Below, piece after piece: positions 5,467 to 26,908 of a DNA stretch of 64,000 nucleotides (position 1 is the first letter of the stretch; each line of letters opens with the position of its first letter). The stretch spans positions 1,450-65,449 of the forward strand of contig JAUIJZ010000008.1 in the NCBI GenBank assembly GCA_030430715.1, written 5' to 3'. Made by a program: the position numbers and the translations under genes. This DNA is from Alphaproteobacteria bacterium. GTDB lineage: Bacteria; Pseudomonadota; Alphaproteobacteria; Caulobacterales; Aquidulcibacteraceae. The notes beneath the pieces are model-generated. The model was not told where the DNA came from. It did no database searches and saw only the letters and a list, made by a program, of their open reading frames with translations.

Positions 5467-6207
5467 GTGTCGAAAGTCATCGTCATTACCGGCGCCGGAG
5501 TGGGCCTTGGGCGCGCCTTGGCGCGGCGTTTCGCGGCTGACGGTGACAATGTCGTTTTGCTTGGGCGTACGCTGGCGAAGGTTGAGGCCGCCGCCCAGGA
5601 GATCGGCGAGAAGGCGGTGGCCATTGGATGCGATGTTGGCGCTCCCGAATCCGTGAAGAGTGCGTTCGCGGCGATTGCGAAAACGCACCCGAAGATCGAC
5701 GTGCTCATCAATAATGCTGCGATCTATGAGCCGACGCTCATCGCCGATGCGAGCGACAAACAAATTGTACAAGCGGTGCACACCAACGTCATGGGGCCGA
5801 TCCTGTGTACGCGCGCGGCGCTGGCGATGATGGGGCGCGGCGGACACGTGATCAATGTGGGCAGCGAGGCGGTTGGCATAAGCCCGTTCCCGCACCTGGT
5901 TCTGTATCAGACGACCAAGGCGGCCCTGGATCGGCTTTCAGAGGGACTTTATCACGAGCTTCAGCCTGCCGGCATCCGCGTCACCAATGTGCGCGCCGGC
6001 ATGATGATCGACATGGAAAAGCCGATGGAGGTCGCCGATCCCGAAGCCTGGAAGCGTTTCCATGAATCGTGCGCGGAAGCCGGTCTGAACTTGCGTCAAC
6101 GTCCGATCTCGCAGGTGAAGTCGGTGACAGACGCGTTCCGCGCGGTTATCGACATGCCGTCCGATGTCTTTATGGCCAATGTGCATCTGCACGCCTGGAA
6201 GCCGTAA
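5467..6207 (+). CDS. SDR family oxidoreductase
   Basis: TGAGVGLG, NNA, YQTTK; GTG start after GGAGG. Confidence 0.9.
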   Translation: MSKVIVITGAGVGLGRALARRFAADGDNVVLLGRTLAKVEAAAQEIGEKAVAIGCDVGAPESVKSAFAAIAKTHPKIDVLINNAAIYEPTLIADASDKQIVQAVHTNVMGPILCTRAALAMMGRGGHVINVGSEAVGISPFPHLVLYQTTKAALDRLSEGLYHELQPAGIRVTNVRAGMMIDMEKPMEVADPEAWKRFHESCAEAGLNLRQRPISQVKSVTDAFRAVIDMPSDVFMANVHLHAWKP

Positions 6208-6242
6208 GTAAAACAAAGAACGGGCGAGGAGGGCGCGCACGA

Positions 6243-7895
6243 ATGGATGAGACATTCGATTTCGTTGTGATCGGCAGCGGCGGGGGATCAATGGCGGCGG
6301 CGCTGCTGCTCCGCTCTTTAGGCAAAAGCGTCGTCATCCTGGAGAAGACCGATCTGGTCGGCGGCACCACGGCGCGCTCTGGCGGCGTCATGTGGATTCC
6401 GAACAACCGGTTCCTGAAGCAAGACGGTGTCGAGGATAGCGCCGAAAAAGCCAATGCCTATCTCGATGCGATCAATAGCGACGATCCGAACTTGCCTGGG
6501 GCGACGCCGGCGCGGCGGCGCTCATTTGTTTCTGAGGCGCCGAAGCTGCTCGATTTTCTGATCGCTCAGGGCATCAAGCTTCAGCGTATCAAATACTGGC
6601 CCGATTATTATGACGATGCGCCGGGCGGCCTTGAGGCTGGACGTACGATTTGCGCCGATCTGTTCGATATCAATGAACTCGGCGAATGGAAGGAAAAGCT
6701 GAGGCCCACCGTTATTCCAGTGCCCGCAACCATGGGCGAAGTGATGCGTGTCGGCGGCGGCGGTTTGGACGCCAAGCTGGCCATGGCCGCGATCGGGCTT
6801 CGCATGATCTATATGAAGCTGACCAAGGCGCCGCTCGTCACAGGCGGACAGGCTTTGCAAGGGCGCATGTTGCAGGCTTCGCTGAAGGCGGGCGCCGATA
6901 TTCGCGTCAATACGCCGGTGAAGGAAATTCTGATTGAGAACGGCCGTGCGGTAGGTGTTGTCGTTACTCAGGACGGTAAGGATAAGCGCATTGGCGGCGC
7001 CCTTGGCGTGCTGATTAATGCGGGAGGTTTCTCCAAGAGTCAGAAACTCCGCGATCAATATCTGCCCGGCACGAAGGTGGAATGGTCGCAGGTTCAGCCG
7101 GGCGATACCGGCGAGATGATTGAAGAGGCGTTGCGTATTGGGGGCGCGGTCGCACAGATGGATGCGACAGTCGGGTCCCAAATTGCGCTGCCGCCGGGCG
7201 CGACAGACATGAAGCCGATGCTGCAGAGCGATGCAGCCAAGCCGCATGCGATCGTCGTCGATCAAAGCGGCGAGCGTTTCATGAATGAGGCGGGGTCGTA
7301 TGTGGATTTTTGCGACGGCTTGAAGGCGCGCGATAAGGTCTCGCCCGCTGTGCCGAGTTGGCTGGTGGTCGATAGCCAATACACCGGCAAATATTCGCTG
7401 ATGAACCAAAAGGGCGAGAAGCTCGAAGCGATGGTGGGCTTTGGCGTTTTCAAGAAGGGCGAAACGCTAGAGGCGCTCGCCGCAGCGTGCGGGATGGATG
7501 CTGGAAAACTGAAAGCCTCGGTCGAACGTTTCAACGGCTTTGCGCGGCGCGGCAAGGACGACGATTTCAACAAGGGCGGCAACGTCTATCAGCGCTGGCA
7601 GGGCGATAGAGCGCATCAGCCGTCGCCATCCCTGGGAACGCTGGAGCAGGGGCCGTTCTATGCGGTTCAGGTGTACCCTGGCGATGTGAGCACGTATGGA
7701 GGGCTGGTCACGGATGAGTATGCGCGCGTGCTGAAGGCGGATGGTGCGCCGATCGAAGGGCTCTACGCGACCGGCGTATCGACTGCGTCGGCCATGGGGC
7801 GGCGTGAACCCGCGGCAGGCGGCAGCGTGGGGCCTTCCTTCGTGTGGGGTTACGTAGCGGCCAAACACGCGGCCCATGCTGGAAATCAAGCGTAG
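6243..7895 (+). CDS. FAD-dependent oxidoreductase, 3-ketosteroid-delta1-dehydrogenase-like
   Basis: GSGGG FAD motif, GGTTARSGG, GPFYAVQVYPGD, C-terminal G.GGS.GP. Confidence 0.75.
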   Translation: MDETFDFVVIGSGGGSMAAALLLRSLGKSVVILEKTDLVGGTTARSGGVMWIPNNRFLKQDGVEDSAEKANAYLDAINSDDPNLPGATPARRRSFVSEAPKLLDFLIAQGIKLQRIKYWPDYYDDAPGGLEAGRTICADLFDINELGEWKEKLRPTVIPVPATMGEVMRVGGGGLDAKLAMAAIGLRMIYMKLTKAPLVTGGQALQGRMLQASLKAGADIRVNTPVKEILIENGRAVGVVVTQDGKDKRIGGALGVLINAGGFSKSQKLRDQYLPGTKVEWSQVQPGDTGEMIEEALRIGGAVAQMDATVGSQIALPPGATDMKPMLQSDAAKPHAIVVDQSGERFMNEAGSYVDFCDGLKARDKVSPAVPSWLVVDSQYTGKYSLMNQKGEKLEAMVGFGVFKKGETLEALAAACGMDAGKLKASVERFNGFARRGKDDDFNKGGNVYQRWQGDRAHQPSPSLGTLEQGPFYAVQVYPGDVSTYGGLVTDEYARVLKADGAPIEGLYATGVSTASAMGRREPAAGGSVGPSFVWGYVAAKHAAHAGNQA

Positions 7896-12752: not shown

Positions 12753-13661
12753 TCAGATTTTGGAGATCACATCAGCGCCAATGCGTTCAGCGTTTTCGCA
12801 CCATTCTTTGACGTTATTGCCGCTAACGTGGAGCGCGGCGGAAAGGATGCCGCGATCTTTGAAGCGGCCGATCTTGTCGATCAGGGATGCCGGCGTCCAT
12901 TGCTCGCCGGGCGAGGTGAGGCTGCTGAGGTGAACCTCCGGCATTTTTAGCCCAGTTTTTTCGGCGTGCGCGCGCATGTAGGCGATGCCTTCGTCGATAT
13001 CGAGTTCGCTATTCATAGCTTGCGTGCGCGCTGTCGCGGAAAGCTGTGCGGGGCCGGTGAAGAACGGATACCAGGCGTCGCCGAGTTCAACGGCGCGACG
13101 GATTGCGCGCTTGGAATTGCCGCCGATCAGAATAGGCGGATGCGGACGCTGTAAGGGGCGCGGCATGACGCGATTGCCGAGAGCCTGATAGCCCGTGCCT
13201 TCAAAAGTGAATTCATCTTGCGTCCACGCCGCTTTCAGCGCGCGGATATATTCATCCATGATTTCGTTGCGTTGATCGAAATTGGCGCCGAGCGCCTTGT
13301 ATTCGCCTTTTAAGTAACCTGCGCCGACACCAAGCGAAACGCGGCCTTTGGAGAAGATGTCGAGTGTGGCGACGGAGCGCGCAACGATGAAGGGATTGCG
13401 GTAGGGCAGCACGAGGATGCCGGTTTGCAGGCGCAGGGTTTTGGTCGCAGCCGCGATGAAGGACAGCATGACGAATGGATCTTGCGCGTTGTGCCCACCG
13501 GCATCGAGCCAACGGCCCGTCGGCGCCGGGTGATCGGTGACGCATGCGCCCGCAAAGCCAGCGCGTTCCGCCGCTTGGGAAATCGCGGTCACTGCTTCCG
13601 GCGTCTGGAAATCGTCCGGCGTGCCGGAACGATCGAAGGGCATGGTGACGTTAATTCTCAT
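12753..13661 (-). CDS. LLM-class oxidoreductase, probably F420-dependent (Rv2161c-like)
   Basis: TDHP, DPFVML, LPYRNP, GVGAG...E, IGGNS motifs. Confidence 0.85.
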   Translation of the reverse strand: MRINVTMPFDRSGTPDDFQTPEAVTAISQAAERAGFAGACVTDHPAPTGRWLDAGGHNAQDPFVMLSFIAAATKTLRLQTGILVLPYRNPFIVARSVATLDIFSKGRVSLGVGAGYLKGEYKALGANFDQRNEIMDEYIRALKAAWTQDEFTFEGTGYQALGNRVMPRPLQRPHPPILIGGNSKRAIRRAVELGDAWYPFFTGPAQLSATARTQAMNSELDIDEGIAYMRAHAEKTGLKMPEVHLSSLTSPGEQWTPASLIDKIGRFKDRGILSAALHVSGNNVKEWCENAERIGADVISKI

Positions 13662-13671
13662 CGGATCACCT

Positions 13672-14532
13672 TCAGGCTTTCAGGGTTTCCTCGACGAGCA
13701 CCCACTTACCGGTTTGATTGCGCACCCAGCCGCTCGACGCCCATGTGCCGCCATCGACGGGAAGAGTAGCGCCATTCACATAAGCACTCATGTTCGACGC
13801 GAGAAACACGGCTGCGTCGCCGCATTCGCTATCGATGCCGGCGCGTCCTGCCGGAATGCGGCGCGCGGTGGCGTCGTCTTGGGCGGCGTTCGGCTTGAAC
13901 CATTTGGACTCATCGACGGGCCCGCCAATATTGCCGCGCGTGCCCGGCGTGATTGTGTAGTCCGGCGCTATGGCGTTGACGCGAATACGGTGCTCCGCCA
14001 GCTCGAGCGCCATCGTGCGCGTAAAATTCAGCATGCCGGCCTTACAGGCCGCGTAGGCCGCATAGCCGGGCGCTGCGCGCGAGCCCTCAATACTGGCCAC
14101 ATTGATGATGGCGCCGCCGCGCTTGCCTTTGATGATTTCTGGAACCGCAGCGTGCGTGGCGGCGAACATGCTGACTAGATTGAGGTCTATCAGTTTACGC
14201 CAGCTTTTTTCGGATTGGTCCAAAAAGGGGCGCTGATTAGTGCCGCCAGCATTGTTGACGAGAATATCGAGCCGGCCGAATTCCTTCGCGGCTCGCTCGA
14301 CCGTTGCTCGGATTTTGTCCGTATCGGCAACGTCTGTCGGCGCGGAAAGGGCGCGGCGTCCTAAGGCGCGCACGCGTGCGGCGGTCTCCTCGCAACGCTC
14401 CGGAACAATGTCGGCTATGACGATATCAGCACCGACGGACGCGAAGGCCAGCGCAATGGCGCGCCCGATGCCGCCGCCGCCACCGGTGATAATGGCGACC
14501 TGTTCGGTCAAAGACATATCGGGCGGGGGCAT
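13672..14532 (-). CDS. SDR family oxidoreductase
   Basis: TGGGGGIG, NNAG, YAACK; AGAGG upstream of the start. Confidence 0.92.
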   Translation of the reverse strand: MPPPDMSLTEQVAIITGGGGGIGRAIALAFASVGADIVIADIVPERCEETAARVRALGRRALSAPTDVADTDKIRATVERAAKEFGRLDILVNNAGGTNQRPFLDQSEKSWRKLIDLNLVSMFAATHAAVPEIIKGKRGGAIINVASIEGSRAAPGYAAYAACKAGMLNFTRTMALELAEHRIRVNAIAPDYTITPGTRGNIGGPVDESKWFKPNAAQDDATARRIPAGRAGIDSECGDAAVFLASNMSAYVNGATLPVDGGTWASSGWVRNQTGKWVLVEETLKA

Positions 14533-14644: not shown

Positions 14645-15232
14645 CTATGCGCGCAATGCCTCCGGCACATCCGCCAGATCGTTCGGCTCGTCTATGTCTA
14701 GCGCCAAGGTTGGCGAACAGATCGCGGCTATATTGAGTGCGAGGCGTTCAATCTCGGCGCTATGCAAAGCGAAGCTGTTCGCCCCGAATTGAAATTTGAA
14801 ATCGGCTGCGGCTGGGAGAGGCAGCGATAGGGCGTTTGTGCCGGAGCGTTTACGATCGGGTGCGATGGCGCAAACATCGGCTCCAAGCATCGCGAGTGCG
14901 TCTACATCATGGGATGTGAGCTTTGGCAGATCGGCTGCAATGATGATGACGCGGTCGACGCCCGCTTTAGCAGCGACGTGGAGCGCTTGCGTAAGCTCGT
15001 CATTGAGGCCTGCGCCTCGGTCCGCGAGCCGCGGAGTTGAGTGTGGCAAGGCATGGCGCGATGGCCCAAGCACATAGACTTTGTCGACGTGCAATGCTGC
15101 GCTTGTCGTCTCCACCACATGGCGCAGCATGTTCGCAACAAGGCGCAGGCGGGCCGTTTCACTGAGCGCCGGCTGAAGCCTTGTTTTGCAATTTTGGGGC
15201 GCCTTGATTGGCGTAATGGCCCAGCAGGTCAC
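14645..15232 (-). CDS. cofC: 2-phospho-L-lactate/phosphoenolpyruvate guanylyltransferase
   Basis: PIK...KTRL, GLN, ADLP, PDR..GTNAL, FG..SF..H, DID...DL motifs; GTG start; neighbours cofE/cofD. Confidence 0.92.
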   Translation of the reverse strand: MTCWAITPIKAPQNCKTRLQPALSETARLRLVANMLRHVVETTSAALHVDKVYVLGPSRHALPHSTPRLADRGAGLNDELTQALHVAAKAGVDRVIIIAADLPKLTSHDVDALAMLGADVCAIAPDRKRSGTNALSLPLPAAADFKFQFGANSFALHSAEIERLALNIAAICSPTLALDIDEPNDLADVPEALRA

Positions 15233-15525
15233 GACGGCATGGACTTAAGGCCGAGCACAAAGTCCTTGTTCGCTGGCGCAATATTGTTAGCGGCGAACGC
15301 GGCCTCGCTATGTTTGGCGTGCGGATGCGCAAGGTGACTGGGGTGTTCCGCGCGGCCGGCAATGGCGAGTACAGCCATGATTATCTCCCAAGACGCTTCA
15401 AGCATGCGCGCGCGCTAGCCGCAATCGGGCTCGACTGGACAGGTTCGGCTTGTGGCGCCACTGTTTGCCACGGCTGCAGCGGCGGCTGTAATAGGCAATC
15501 CGCTGAGGCGAAAGGGTGCTTTCAG

Positions 15526-16335
15526 ATGCAGCCAGAAGACGCGCCCGCTTCCGGGCCAAGCGTCGTCACCGGCATGAGTGTGACGGTTCTACGTGGGTTG
15601 CCAATGTTTCAAGAGGGCATGAGCGTAGCGCGCGAAATCGCCAAGGCCGCACTGCATGTAGGGTTTAATGTCAACGACGGCGATGTGGTGGTGGTCGCTC
15701 AAAAAATAGTCTCGAAGGTTGAAGGGCGAAAAGTGCGTCTGAGTGATGTGGAGGCTGGCGCGGAGGCAGAGACGCTTGCGCAGCGCACTGGCCGGCCTGC
15801 CGCTCTGATGCAATTGATGCGTGATGAAAGCGCTGAGATTATGCGCGCTACGCCACAAGTGACGATCACGCGTCAACGCACCGGTCATGTTGCAGCAAAT
15901 GCGGGCATAGATGCGTCCAATATAGAAGGCGGCGAAGATGACGCCGTTTTGCTTTGGCCGCGCGATGCGGACGCTAGCGCGCGGGCCATCCGTGCTGAGC
16001 TAAGCGCAGCGTCAGGTGCGGCGCCTGCTGTGTTGATCGCCGACAGTTTGGGCCGCGCATGGCGCATGGGCACAATTGGCACGGCGATTGGCTGCGCTGG
16101 ATTGCAAGTACTGCACGATCGCTGCGGCGAGGCTGACCTCTTTGGCAGGGCGTTGCGCGCCACGTTGGTCGGTGTTGCGGACTCGATTGCGGCGGTGGCG
16201 GTCTTGGCCATGGGCGAGGGGGCGGAGGGCACGCCGGTTGCGATTGTGCGCGGGGTGCAGCGTTATGTGACGCGCGAGGATGGAAACGGCGCGGTTATGG
16301 CTCTGCGTCCGCTGGATCAGGATCTATTCCGGTGA
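15526..16335 (+). CDS. cofE: Coenzyme F420-0:L-glutamate ligase (stand-alone, no nitroreductase domain)
   Basis: VAQKIVSKVEGR, ANAGIDASN, DSLGRAWR, GEGAEGTP, ending RPLDQDLFR. Confidence 0.92.
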   Translation: MQPEDAPASGPSVVTGMSVTVLRGLPMFQEGMSVAREIAKAALHVGFNVNDGDVVVVAQKIVSKVEGRKVRLSDVEAGAEAETLAQRTGRPAALMQLMRDESAEIMRATPQVTITRQRTGHVAANAGIDASNIEGGEDDAVLLWPRDADASARAIRAELSAASGAAPAVLIADSLGRAWRMGTIGTAIGCAGLQVLHDRCGEADLFGRALRATLVGVADSIAAVAVLAMGEGAEGTPVAIVRGVQRYVTREDGNGAVMALRPLDQDLFR

Positions 16336-17294
16336 TGGAAGGGCATGTGCTGGCGCTCTGCGGCGGCGTGGGCGGCGCCAAGTTCGCGGCGGGGCTGGCG
16401 GCAGTGCTGCCCCCGGAGCAGCTAACCATCGTCGTCAATACGGGCGATGATTTCGAACATATCGGGCTCAGCATTTCGCCAGACATTGACACCGTCTTGT
16501 ACGCCTTGTCCGGGCTTTCCGATGCTGTGCGCGGCTGGGGAGTCGCTGATGAGAGTTGGCGCTGCATGGAGATGCTTGAGCGCTTGGGTGAGCCGCAATG
16601 GTTCATGCTTGGCGATCGCGATCTCGCCATGCATTTGGCGCGCACCCATCGCTTGCGCGCCGGAGAGACTTTGTCGGGGGTCACATCAGATCTCGCGCTT
16701 CGCCTAGGTATTGCAGCGGCGATCGCACCCATGAGCGACGACCGTGTGCGCACCGAGGTTGACACCGAGCAGTGTGCGTTGCCGTTTCAACGCTATTTCG
16801 TCGCTGAGCAGTGTAAGCCCGTGGCGCGCGCCATTCGCTACGTGGGTGCAGAGGTGGCGCGACCATCACCGGCTTTTTCCGCTGCCTTGACGCGGCGTGA
16901 CCTCGCCGCCGTGATGATCTGTCCGTCCAATCCCTATCTCAGCATAGACCCGATCTTGGCGGTTCCTGGCGTGCGTGCGCAGTTGGAGCGTGTGCGTGCG
17001 CCGCGGGTGGCGGTCTCGCCGATTATCGCCGGCAAGGCGCTCAAAGGGCCTGCGGCCAAGCTCATGGGGGAGCTTGGGGTGGAGCCGGATGTAGTTTCTG
17101 TTGCGCGCCATTATCGTGAGCTGATCGACGTGCTGATCATTGATGAGTCCGACGCTGCGCGTGCTGGCGATGTCGAGGCCGTTGGCGTAAAGGCGGTGAC
17201 AGCGCCCGCCATCATGCGTACGGCGGCTGATCGTGCTGCGCTCGCACGCGAAGCATTGGCGGCGGCGCGCCAGTCGAAGGGAGTGGCCGTTTGA
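16335..17294 (+). CDS. cofD: 2-phospho-L-lactate transferase
   Basis: GGVGGAKF, NTGDDF, SPDIDT, LGDRDLA, PSNPYLSIDPIL, KGPA; overlaps cofE stop. Confidence 0.95.
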   Translation: MEGHVLALCGGVGGAKFAAGLAAVLPPEQLTIVVNTGDDFEHIGLSISPDIDTVLYALSGLSDAVRGWGVADESWRCMEMLERLGEPQWFMLGDRDLAMHLARTHRLRAGETLSGVTSDLALRLGIAAAIAPMSDDRVRTEVDTEQCALPFQRYFVAEQCKPVARAIRYVGAEVARPSPAFSAALTRRDLAAVMICPSNPYLSIDPILAVPGVRAQLERVRAPRVAVSPIIAGKALKGPAAKLMGELGVEPDVVSVARHYRELIDVLIIDESDAARAGDVEAVGVKAVTAPAIMRTAADRAALAREALAAARQSKGVAV

Positions 17295-19630
17295 AACTGG
17301 AGGCGGATACAAGTCTACGGCGTTGGCTGCTTGAGGCGCCGACCGAGACCTTGCTCACGGAAGCGCGCGCGCGTCGTGATGGGCGTGGTCCAATGCGGAC
17401 GACCTATTCGCGAAAAGTGTTTATCCCGCTGACGCAGCTTTGCGCCGATGTTTGCCATTATTGCACCTTTGCGAAGGCGCCGCGCAAATTGGCCGCCACG
17501 TATCTGACGCCCGACCAAGCGCTGGACATTGCGCGGCGTGGCGCGGCGATGGGATGCAAGGAAGCGTTGTTTACGCTCGGCGATGCGCCTGAGCGCCGTT
17601 ATGCGGTCGCGCGGGATGCACTGACCGAAATGGGCTTTGAGCGCACGATCGATTATGTCGCGCATGTCGCGGGGCTGGTGCTCAAGGAAACGGGACTTCT
17701 ACCGCACATCAATGCCGGCGTTCTGAGTGAGGACGATTATCGCCAGCTGCGCGGTGTTTCGGCATCGGCGGGGCTCATGCTGGAAAGCGCGTCGGACAGG
17801 CTGTGCGAACGCGGTGGACCGCATTTCGGTTCGCCGGACAAGCGCCCCGCTGTGCGAATGGAGTCGCTCGCGGCGGCGGGCGTGGTGCGCATGCCGGTCA
17901 CAAGCGGTGTACTGATTGGTATCGGTGAGACTGAAGAAGAGCGGTTGGATGCGCTGATTGCGCTGCGCGATCTGCATCGCCGTTACGGCCATCTACAAGA
18001 AGTGATCGTGCAGAACTTCCTGCCTAAGGCTGGCACGCGCATGGAGCATGCGTCGCCGCCGCCGGAAGACGCTTTTTTGCGGGCGGTCGCCTGGGCGCGC
18101 ATCGTTCTCGATGACGATGTAGCCGTGCAAGCGCCGCCAAACTTGAATATGGCGCGGCTCGCACGGTTGCTTGATGCTGGCATCGACGATTGGGGCGGCG
18201 TTTCGCCTGTGACCGCCGATCATGTCAATCCTGAAGCGCCCTGGCCGGAAGTTGAACGGCTCGCCGCAGTTTGCGCACGTGCGGGCCGGCCATTGACCGA
18301 GCGCCTTACTATCTATCCGAGGTTTGCTCTCGCCTCTGAAATTTGGCTCGACGCGGCCGTGCGCCCTGCTGTGTTGGCGCTAAGTGATGGCGAGGGGCTT
18401 GGGCGGGAAGGCGATTGGAGCCCCGGCGTGGCCGCGCCAGCGTTGGGTTCGTCACAAAAACCGTTGCCGCACGCGCCGGGTATAATGGGCGACGCTGCTA
18501 TTGAGCGTAATCTTGCGCGCGCGCAGAACGGGATGGAGCTTTCGGAAGCCGATATCGTGCGGTTGTTCGAGAGCCGCGGTGCGGCGGCGGAAGCGATTGT
18601 GCGCGCGGCGGATGCATTGCGCGCCGAGGTGAAGGGCGACGCGGTGACGTATGTTGTCAACCGCAACATCAACTATACCAATATATGTAGCTATAAGTGT
18701 TCCTTCTGTGCGTTCTCCAAAACGTCGGCGAAAGCCGGTCATCGCGATACGCCTTACGTGCTCGACTATGAGGAGGTCGCTGCGCGCACGCTTGAGGCGC
18801 GGGCGCGTGGCTCGACGGAGGTGTGCCTGCAGGGCGGTATTCATCCAAGTTATACGGGGGAGACCTATCTCGGCATTCTTGAGTCGGTGAAGCGTGCCTG
18901 TCCGGACATGCATGTACACGCCTTCTCGCCGCTTGAGGTGAGCTCTGGCGCCGCCACGTTGAAGATGCCGGTACGCGATTTCCTGAAACGCTTGAAGGAG
19001 GCGGGGCTCGGCTCGTTGCCGGGCACGGCGGCGGAAATTCTCGATGACGAGGTGCGGGCGCTTATCTGCCCCGATAAATTATCTACCCAAGAATGGCTCA
19101 GCGTCGTGAAGACTGCGCATGAGGTTGGCTTGGCGACGACGGCGACAATCATGTTCGGCCACGTAGAGACTTACACACATTGGGCGCGGCATTTGCTCGC
19201 TATTCGCCGCCTGCAATTGCAAACGGGTGGGTTCACGGAGTTCGTACCGCTACCGTTCGTACATATGGAAGCCCCGATGTTTCATCGCGGAAAGGCGCGG
19301 CGAGGGCCAACATGGCGCGAGACGGTGCTGATGCATGCGGTGAGCCGTTTGGTACTACATGGTGCGATCGATTCTATTCAGTGTTCTTGGGTCAAGCTTG
19401 GCGTGGACGGGGCCGCAGCCTGTCTTGCGGCAGGCGTGAACGATCTTGGCGGCGTGCTCATGAATGAGAGCATCAGCCGCGCGGCGGGCGCTGCGCATGG
19501 GCAAGAAGTCAATGTTGAAGACCTCGCTGCGGCAGCGCGTGCGGCTGGCCGTACGCTGCGCCAGCGTACTACGCTCTATGGCCTGATCGATGAAGGCGGG
19601 TCGCAGGCTCTGGCTCAGGCGCCCGCCTGA
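17291..19630 (+). CDS. fbiC: Bifunctional FO synthase (fused CofG-CofH)
   Basis: Two radical-SAM motifs (CADVCHYC, CSYKCSFC), DDWGGVSPVT.D.VNPE.PWP, SLPGTAAEIL; TTG start overlaps cofD stop. Confidence 0.95.
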   Translation: MKLEADTSLRRWLLEAPTETLLTEARARRDGRGPMRTTYSRKVFIPLTQLCADVCHYCTFAKAPRKLAATYLTPDQALDIARRGAAMGCKEALFTLGDAPERRYAVARDALTEMGFERTIDYVAHVAGLVLKETGLLPHINAGVLSEDDYRQLRGVSASAGLMLESASDRLCERGGPHFGSPDKRPAVRMESLAAAGVVRMPVTSGVLIGIGETEEERLDALIALRDLHRRYGHLQEVIVQNFLPKAGTRMEHASPPPEDAFLRAVAWARIVLDDDVAVQAPPNLNMARLARLLDAGIDDWGGVSPVTADHVNPEAPWPEVERLAAVCARAGRPLTERLTIYPRFALASEIWLDAAVRPAVLALSDGEGLGREGDWSPGVAAPALGSSQKPLPHAPGIMGDAAIERNLARAQNGMELSEADIVRLFESRGAAAEAIVRAADALRAEVKGDAVTYVVNRNINYTNICSYKCSFCAFSKTSAKAGHRDTPYVLDYEEVAARTLEARARGSTEVCLQGGIHPSYTGETYLGILESVKRACPDMHVHAFSPLEVSSGAATLKMPVRDFLKRLKEAGLGSLPGTAAEILDDEVRALICPDKLSTQEWLSVVKTAHEVGLATTATIMFGHVETYTHWARHLLAIRRLQLQTGGFTEFVPLPFVHMEAPMFHRGKARRGPTWRETVLMHAVSRLVLHGAIDSIQCSWVKLGVDGAAACLAAGVNDLGGVLMNESISRAAGAAHGQEVNVEDLAAAARAAGRTLRQRTTLYGLIDEGGSQALAQAPA

Positions 19631-26832: not shown

Positions 26833-26908
<76 letters not shown>

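Follow-up and report, generated by a model that had tools for sequence, protein, structure and literature searches.

No FbiB C-terminal domain and no FbiE-type reductase of dehydro-F420 was found in the genome that carries the F420 gene cluster described here, and this absence holds at the level of the whole genome as well as in the window, by which we mean the whole stretch of 64,000 nucleotides that was analysed. By gene content, the genome contains a complete set of F420 biosynthesis genes. Our main reading, to which we assign a probability of about 0.6, is that the module is intact, that its CofC is of the 2-phospholactate (2-PL)/phosphoenolpyruvate (PEP) class, and that lactyl-F420 is made from PEP or 2-PL with no reductase of the nitroreductase fold. 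An alphaproteobacterial-type module, in which cofC-SDR-LLM faces cofE-cofD-fbiC, would have been acquired horizontally on an island beside a tRNA-Lys gene, by a host that would be a Hyphomonadaceae/Vitreimonas-like bacterium. Its CofC would feed the synthesis of ordinary lactyl-F420, and neither an FbiB C-domain nor FbiE would take part. Either PEP would be the substrate, with the reduction of dehydro-F420-0 left to a non-nitroreductase enzyme, or 2-PL would be used, in which case the reduction would not be needed.

The genes were identified by NCBIfam profiles, and cofC, cofE, cofD and fbiC each scored above the curated cut-off (Table 1). cofC is encoded on the minus strand, opposite the cofE-cofD-fbiC unit (15574-19630, plus strand), which has 4-base overlaps at both the cofE/cofD and the cofD/fbiC junctions. 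On the strand of cofC, 112 bases separate it from an SDR oxidoreductase gene downstream, which is in turn followed, 10 bases on, by a gene for a luciferase-like F420-class oxidoreductase (LLM).

Table 1. Features of the F420 module and its surroundings, with coordinates in the window, and the CofC residues aligned to the published specificity sites.
Feature	Position	Strand	Basis or remark
LLM, luciferase-like F420-class oxidoreductase	12753-13661	-	TIGR03619, 241 bits (cut-off 167)
SDR oxidoreductase	13672-14532	-	NF005559, 231 bits
cofC, putative guanylyltransferase of the 2-PL/PEP class, 195 aa	14645-15232	-	TIGR03552, 132 bits (cut-off 105)
Divergent intergenic region cofC/cofE	15233-15573		Site of fno in relatives; fno missing in the window
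cofE, single-domain F420:glutamate ligase	15574-16335, within ORF 15310-16335	+	TIGR01916, 240 bits; PF01996
cofD/fbiA, phospho-acid transferase	16332-17294	+	TIGR01819, 286 bits
fbiC (fused cofG/cofH), FO synthase	17291-19630	+	NF006687, 1091 bits
tRNA-Lys(CTT), right boundary of island	26833-26908	-	ARAGORN
CofC specificity site Met91 (MycB3/Mrhiz-CofC)	Leu76 of window CofC		
CofC specificity site Cys95 (MycB3/Mrhiz-CofC)	Leu80 of window CofC		
CofC specificity site His145 (MycB3/Mrhiz-CofC)	Ser130 of window CofC		
CofC specificity site Ser162 (MycB3/Mrhiz-CofC)	Gly150 of window CofC		

The open reading frame of cofE encodes 341 aa, and its similarity to 118 relatives begins only at residue 86-89, so that the real CofE would have a length of 253 aa if Met 15574 is its start and of 269 aa if Met 15526 is. 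The extension at 15310-15573 has no homology in the relatives, and the sequence upstream of the cofE start is probably a divergent promoter region. The protein ends in RPLDQDLFR, and because its stop codon lies 4 bases inside cofD there is no space for a C-terminal domain. F420_ligase (PF01996) is the sole Pfam domain in CofE, the match of the FbiB model NF009810 is confined to the ligase half, and no C-terminal FMN nitroreductase domain (TIGR03553) is fused to it. The first-pass annotation, which described a CofE of about 270 aa with this C-terminus and no FbiB-type domain, is thus acceptable on each point.

Looking for a reductase encoded elsewhere, we searched the whole assembly (3.24 Mb in 172 contigs, 98.8% complete, with the window on contig C94) in six frames with PF00881 and TIGR03553. 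The window contained no nitroreductase by either model, and the best TIGR03553 match in the entire assembly reached only 19.6 bits, against a cut-off of 249.55. The single PF00881 match, on contig C89, is the same gene. It encodes a YdjA-like nitroreductase (NF008088, 130 bits; 22 bits on the FbiB-C model) between NUDIX and QueF genes, and it is kept in 13 of the 15 congeners and in all ten same-order genomes, all of which lack cofC except one congener (G444). Its presence in relatives devoid of cofC indicates an inherited housekeeping gene outside the F420 module, and together with its low score on the FbiB-C model this led us to reject it as the F420 side-chain reductase. A tblastn search of the genome with an alphaproteobacterial FbiE-like protein gave nothing better than E ~1, and no strong FbiB-C profile match was present anywhere in the genome; as a positive control, the same search recovered FbiE-type genes (128-149 bits) in three of 57 other cofC-bearing members of the class. 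The earlier statement that no nitroreductase is present in the window or fused to CofE was therefore upheld by the six-frame search, and the genome-wide search for a canonical fbiE or fbiB-C, on which the reading built on it might have failed, was negative with both profiles and tblastn.

The draft state of the assembly bears on this result, as the 1.2% that is unassembled could hold a canonical FbiE gene. Evidence from the clade to which the CofC belongs makes this most improbable. Eighty loci belong to this clade, among them loci from Phenylobacterium, Hyphomonadaceae, Novosphingobium and Sphingobium, and its canonical layout is fbiC< cofD< cofE< followed by fno> cofC> SDR> LLM>. In none of the 80 loci was a nitroreductase found within 10 kb, and none of the 32 genomes of the clade that were searched with TIGR03553 has FbiE: the two matches inspected there, of 64.5 and 79.9 bits, turned out to be BluB (dimethylbenzimidazole synthase). 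Such cross-matches (L083:1354-2085:+ and L085:1432-2070:-), which lie among or close to cobalamin genes, with cobA and cobN as neighbours in one case, led us to reject TIGR03553 matches of 40-80 bits in relatives as FbiE; moderate matches of this kind should not be taken for it.

We then considered the class as a whole, using an even sample of 401 genomes, 58 of which carry cofC, i.e., 57 besides the source genome. Thirty-nine of the 57 had no FbiB-C (TIGR03553) match at E 1e-8, and 12 had matches of 38-65 bits, by score within the BluB range. Three, all of one family (f44), had an ambiguous nitroreductase, and the remaining three were those with the FbiE-type genes mentioned above. The nitroreductases of that family and of congener G444 scored 55-63 bits, with little difference between the BluB and FbiB-C models, and were therefore left unassigned; the G444 gene, located on a different contig from its cofC (L150:6866-7489:+), obtained 63 bits with FbiB-C and 62 with BluB. 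One FbiE-type gene (147 bits with TIGR03553; L087:1480-2472:-, and L119) is encoded in the operon fno-cofE-FbiE-cofD-cofC of G230, a genome of 6.0 Mb on a single contig. The G230 operon indicates that a PEP/FbiE route exists in a minority of Alphaproteobacteria. By these profile searches, having no recognisable reductase is the rule, the majority state, among the F420-making Alphaproteobacteria sampled. The missing reductase to which the first-pass annotation drew attention is thus real, but it is not special to this organism. The gap is already recognised in the literature as the "CofX or 2-phospholactate" problem: a separate enzyme, 'CofX', is expected in archaea and some bacteria (Bashiri et al., PMC6450877), and a 2024 paper speaks of 'a stand-alone nitroreductase or a yet-unknown enzyme' (PMC10949242).

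Given a short CofE and neither FbiB-C nor FbiE, one way out would be the synthesis of 3PG-F420 from 3-phosphoglycerate (3-PG), as in Mycetohabitans, by a route that needs no reductase. Among solved structures the best match of the window CofC is 7P97 (E 7.5e-21), the 3-PG guanylyltransferase of Mycetohabitans sp. B3, followed by the M. mazei CofC, and in the phmmer search M. tuberculosis FbiD (6BWH) was not matched at E 0.01 or better; both results speak for 3PG-F420. The residues that determine specificity speak against it. The 7P97 chain numbering is offset by +27 from that of the paper, and K20, K26, R28 and D116 all agree under this offset. D101, D179 and D181 then align to the Mg-binding D116, D191 and D193 of MycB3-CofC, and the carboxylate-binding S153 aligns to S165; all four are invariant in 120 CofC homologs. 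Ser or Thr at position 162 is diagnostic for 3-PG use (Hasan et al., PMC8764529), and the window CofC has Gly150 there; at the three supporting positions Met91, Cys95 and His145 it has Leu76, Leu80 and Ser130. Gly150 and Leu76 are themselves invariant in 120 of 120 CofC homologs. M91L and C95L lower 3-PG use, CofC enzymes with Gly at the S162 site show no 3-PG turnover, and mycobacterial FbiD gains 3-PG activity only with the double change G169S;T152H (PMC8764529). With non-3-PG residues at all four published positions, 3PG-F420 is very unlikely, and the alignment to 7P97 disfavours that option of the first-pass annotation. Judging by these residues, the window CofC would belong to the 2-PL/PEP class and not to the 3-PG class, and the end product is then most likely ordinary lactyl-F420.

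The first-pass annotation had listed four outcomes: 3PG-F420, use of 2-PL, accumulation of dehydro-F420, and an unlinked or unknown reductase. The logic of this list is sound, but the outcomes are not equally open, as 3PG-F420 is disfavoured. Within the 2-PL/PEP class, neither assays of CofC nor its sequence can discriminate between 2-PL and PEP, and it is the cognate CofD that gates the outcome (PMC8764529). The CofD of the window could not serve as a discriminator of LPPG and EPPG, being about equally similar to both solved types (196 bits to M. mazei CofD, 3C3D, and 186 bits to M. smegmatis FbiA, 6UVX). Sequence thus cannot distinguish the two routes. We know of no 2-PL source in any bacterium, and likewise of no dehydro-F420 reductase outside the nitroreductase fold in any bacterium.

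A 2-PL route, in which CofC draws on a pool of 2-phospho-L-lactate supplied by a kinase or by some side activity and F420-0 is made directly, with no reductase, is possible. When combined with the M. jannaschii CofD, the CofC proteins of P. denitrificans and O. carboxidovorans prefer 2-PL, with PEP at 3.5-30%, yet the same assay also shows a 2-PL preference for M. smegmatis FbiD, which uses PEP in vivo (PMC8764529). The 39 cofC-bearing Alphaproteobacteria with no FbiB-C match are consistent with such a route. So is the CofD, which is slightly nearer to the LPPG-using archaeal enzyme, although a 10-bit difference is not meaningful. PEP with a reductase of another fold is slightly favoured over 2-PL, because archaeal CofC and CofD expressed in yeast make only dehydro-F420-0 (PMC10949242). 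The same experiment, in cells with no dedicated reductase, fits another alternative, that PEP is used, the enolpyruvyl group stays unreduced and dehydro-F420 itself is the mature cofactor. Two further observations agree with it: neither profiles nor tblastn found a known reductase in the genome, and FbiB in yeast glutamylated dehydro-F420 to dehydro-F420-1 (PMC10949242). Nevertheless, the stability of dehydro-F420 is described as lower than that of the saturated forms (PMC8764529, PMC8498797), none of the literature cited here reports it as a final cofactor, and F420 was reported from the Alphaproteobacteria tested (PMC8498797). We regard this outcome as unlikely and prefer lactyl-F420 as the product, with product and route both inferred.

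If an enzyme outside the nitroreductase fold reduces dehydro-F420-0, the two genes that follow cofC come to mind. SDR orthologs (56-69% identity) follow cofC in 46 of the 56 divergent-type clade loci that had enough flanking sequence to be counted, and LLM orthologs (49-64% identity) follow cofC-SDR in 42 of them; four keep the SDR only. The SDR-LLM pair is missing from ten of the 56 and from all 11 colinear clade loci, and close orthologs of either gene are lacking near most other alphaproteobacterial clusters. We also considered a distribution of LLM/SDR complementary to that of FbiE and found no such pattern, and the nearest solved homologs are distant and of mixed cofactor type. Chemical precedent would come from the enzyme family of the LLM: LxmJ, a luciferase-like F420H2-dependent hydride transferase, reduces dehydroalanine (PMC8498797), which, like the enolpyruvyl group, is a 2-substituted acrylate, and by this analogy reduction of the enolpyruvyl group by a luciferase-like enzyme is chemically conceivable. 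As a candidate for the missing step, the cofC-SDR-LLM operon is weak but open to testing. The specific proposal that these clade-conserved genes, one or both, supply the missing chemistry, with the LLM acting as 'CofX' or the pair making 2-PL, is quite improbable.

Other genes bear on whether the cofactor is used. The genome encodes two stand-alone FDOR-A proteins (PF04075, F420H2_quin_red; G000:C147:5806-6246 and G000:C34:8658-9149), both in ordinary contexts, and within the genus this family is found only in the two cofC-bearing genomes and in none of 14 control genomes. Six luciferase-like genes are present in the genome, two of them in the window. As the FDOR-A family in the genus is limited to cofC-bearing genomes, the F420 pathway appears, from gene content, to be in use. 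In most clade relatives fno, which encodes the NADPH:F420 oxidoreductase, lies between cofE and cofC (cofE< fno> cofC>); it is absent from the window and from the whole genome by TIGR01915 and tblastn, and a remnant in the cofC-cofE spacer was sought by tblastn and none was found. The loss of fno from the cluster speaks against the main reading, and so does the report that F420 occurred only in trace amounts in P. denitrificans and O. carboxidovorans, the two Alphaproteobacteria tested (PMC8498797).

The F420 genes are part of a strain-specific island, at least 26.8 kb long, that ends at the tRNA-Lys gene. From 26,833 on, the window is syntenic with all 15 congeners (65-84% identity), and positions 1-26,832 show no synteny with any of them. 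The only substantial matches of this part to the congeners are two fbiC stretches (67%) in the different cluster of G444, and the rest are shorter than 400 bases. On its left side the island extends beyond the contig end, and no integrase was recognised among its annotated genes. Besides the F420 genes it contains a sulfotransferase operon and a block of CoA-ester metabolism. Contig misbinning was ruled out by the synteny of the region at 26.8-40 kb with 15 of 15 congeners, and on the right-hand side of the cluster the housekeeping genes share 85-86% identity with proteins of Hyphomonadaceae, Vitreimonas and Caulobacteraceae. cofC is found in only one of the 15 congeners, G444, whose cluster (L151) differs in type: its order is fno-fbiC-cofC-cofE-cofD, and its genes share 33-54% identity with those of the window. 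This and the lack of congener synteny indicate that the F420 module is a recent horizontal acquisition. In content and order it is nearest to that of Phenylobacterium (59-81% identity).

At locus L003 of Phenylobacterium sp. LjRoot225, the genes just past cofC-SDR-LLM include orthologs (70-72% identity) of the sulfotransferase and of the second LLM encoded in the window, and the F420 module and the sulfotransferase cassette appear to travel together. The island also encodes a 608-aa FAD_binding_2 flavoprotein (6069-7895, plus strand; fumarate-reductase/KstD-like), whose neighbours are genes for a CoA-transferase, an acyl-CoA ligase, a hydratase and a thioesterase; it is probably part of a lipid or steroid-type catabolic block. 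We considered it as a C=C reductase and rejected it, as it is not conserved beside F420 clusters in the 80 clade loci.

How a saturated lactyl side chain arises in organisms with a single-domain CofE, i.e., most archaea and most F420-making Proteobacteria, is an acknowledged gap, for which a 2-PL source and a 'CofX' reductase are the candidates. The window leaves this gap unsolved and shows that it is genuine at the whole-genome level in a near-complete genome, with 3PG-F420 not being the way out in this organism. The missing reductase is therefore a known general question and not a peculiarity of the locus; what is new here is the strain-specific island with its tRNA-Lys end, the loss of fno and the retained cofC-SDR-LLM operon of the clade. 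Cultured and tractable carriers of the same cluster exist, among them the Phenylobacterium LjRoot strains (such as LjRoot225 and LjRoot219) and many Novosphingobium (such as Novosphingobium sp. BL-8A and N. malaysiense), and offer two specific co-transcribed genes for study. The question is also relevant to engineered production of F420, since the cofactor obtained depends on the CofC/CofD and the reductase that are chosen.

In mycobacteria, FbiD, FbiA and FbiB use PEP to form dehydro-F420-0, which is reduced by the C-terminal FMN domain of FbiB. The window shares with this pathway homologous CofC, CofD, CofE-domain and FbiC proteins, and PEP as a possible substrate; unlike in mycobacteria, the nitroreductase domain is neither fused to CofE nor encoded as a stand-alone protein, and M. 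tuberculosis FbiD has no detectable phmmer match to the window CofC. Thermomicrobium roseum, going by what PMC8498797 relates of Braga et al. (2020), has a stand-alone FbiE; it resembles the window in its short CofE and separate genes, and differs in that FbiE is absent from the window genome. The Mycetohabitans 3PG-F420 system likewise has a proteobacterial host, a short CofE and no reductase, and 7P97 is the best-scoring solved homolog of the window CofC, but it has Met, Cys, His and Ser where the window protein has Leu, Leu, Ser and Gly. P. denitrificans and O. carboxidovorans are, like the source organism, Alphaproteobacteria, were reported as F420 makers (Ney et al., 2017, cited in PMC8498797 and PMC8764529), and have CofC proteins of the 2-PL/PEP class, like that predicted here. 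Likeness in gene content was judged on the 57 cofC-bearing genomes of the class, not on the clusters of these two species: as in the window, CofE is short and single-domain, FbiC is fused, and none has an FbiB C-domain. The common order in the class is fno-cofE-cofD-cofC-fbiC, with a CofC about 30% identical to that of the window, whereas the window, having lost fno, belongs to a separate Sphingomonadales/Caulobacterales clade with the divergent layout and the cofC-SDR-LLM arrangement.
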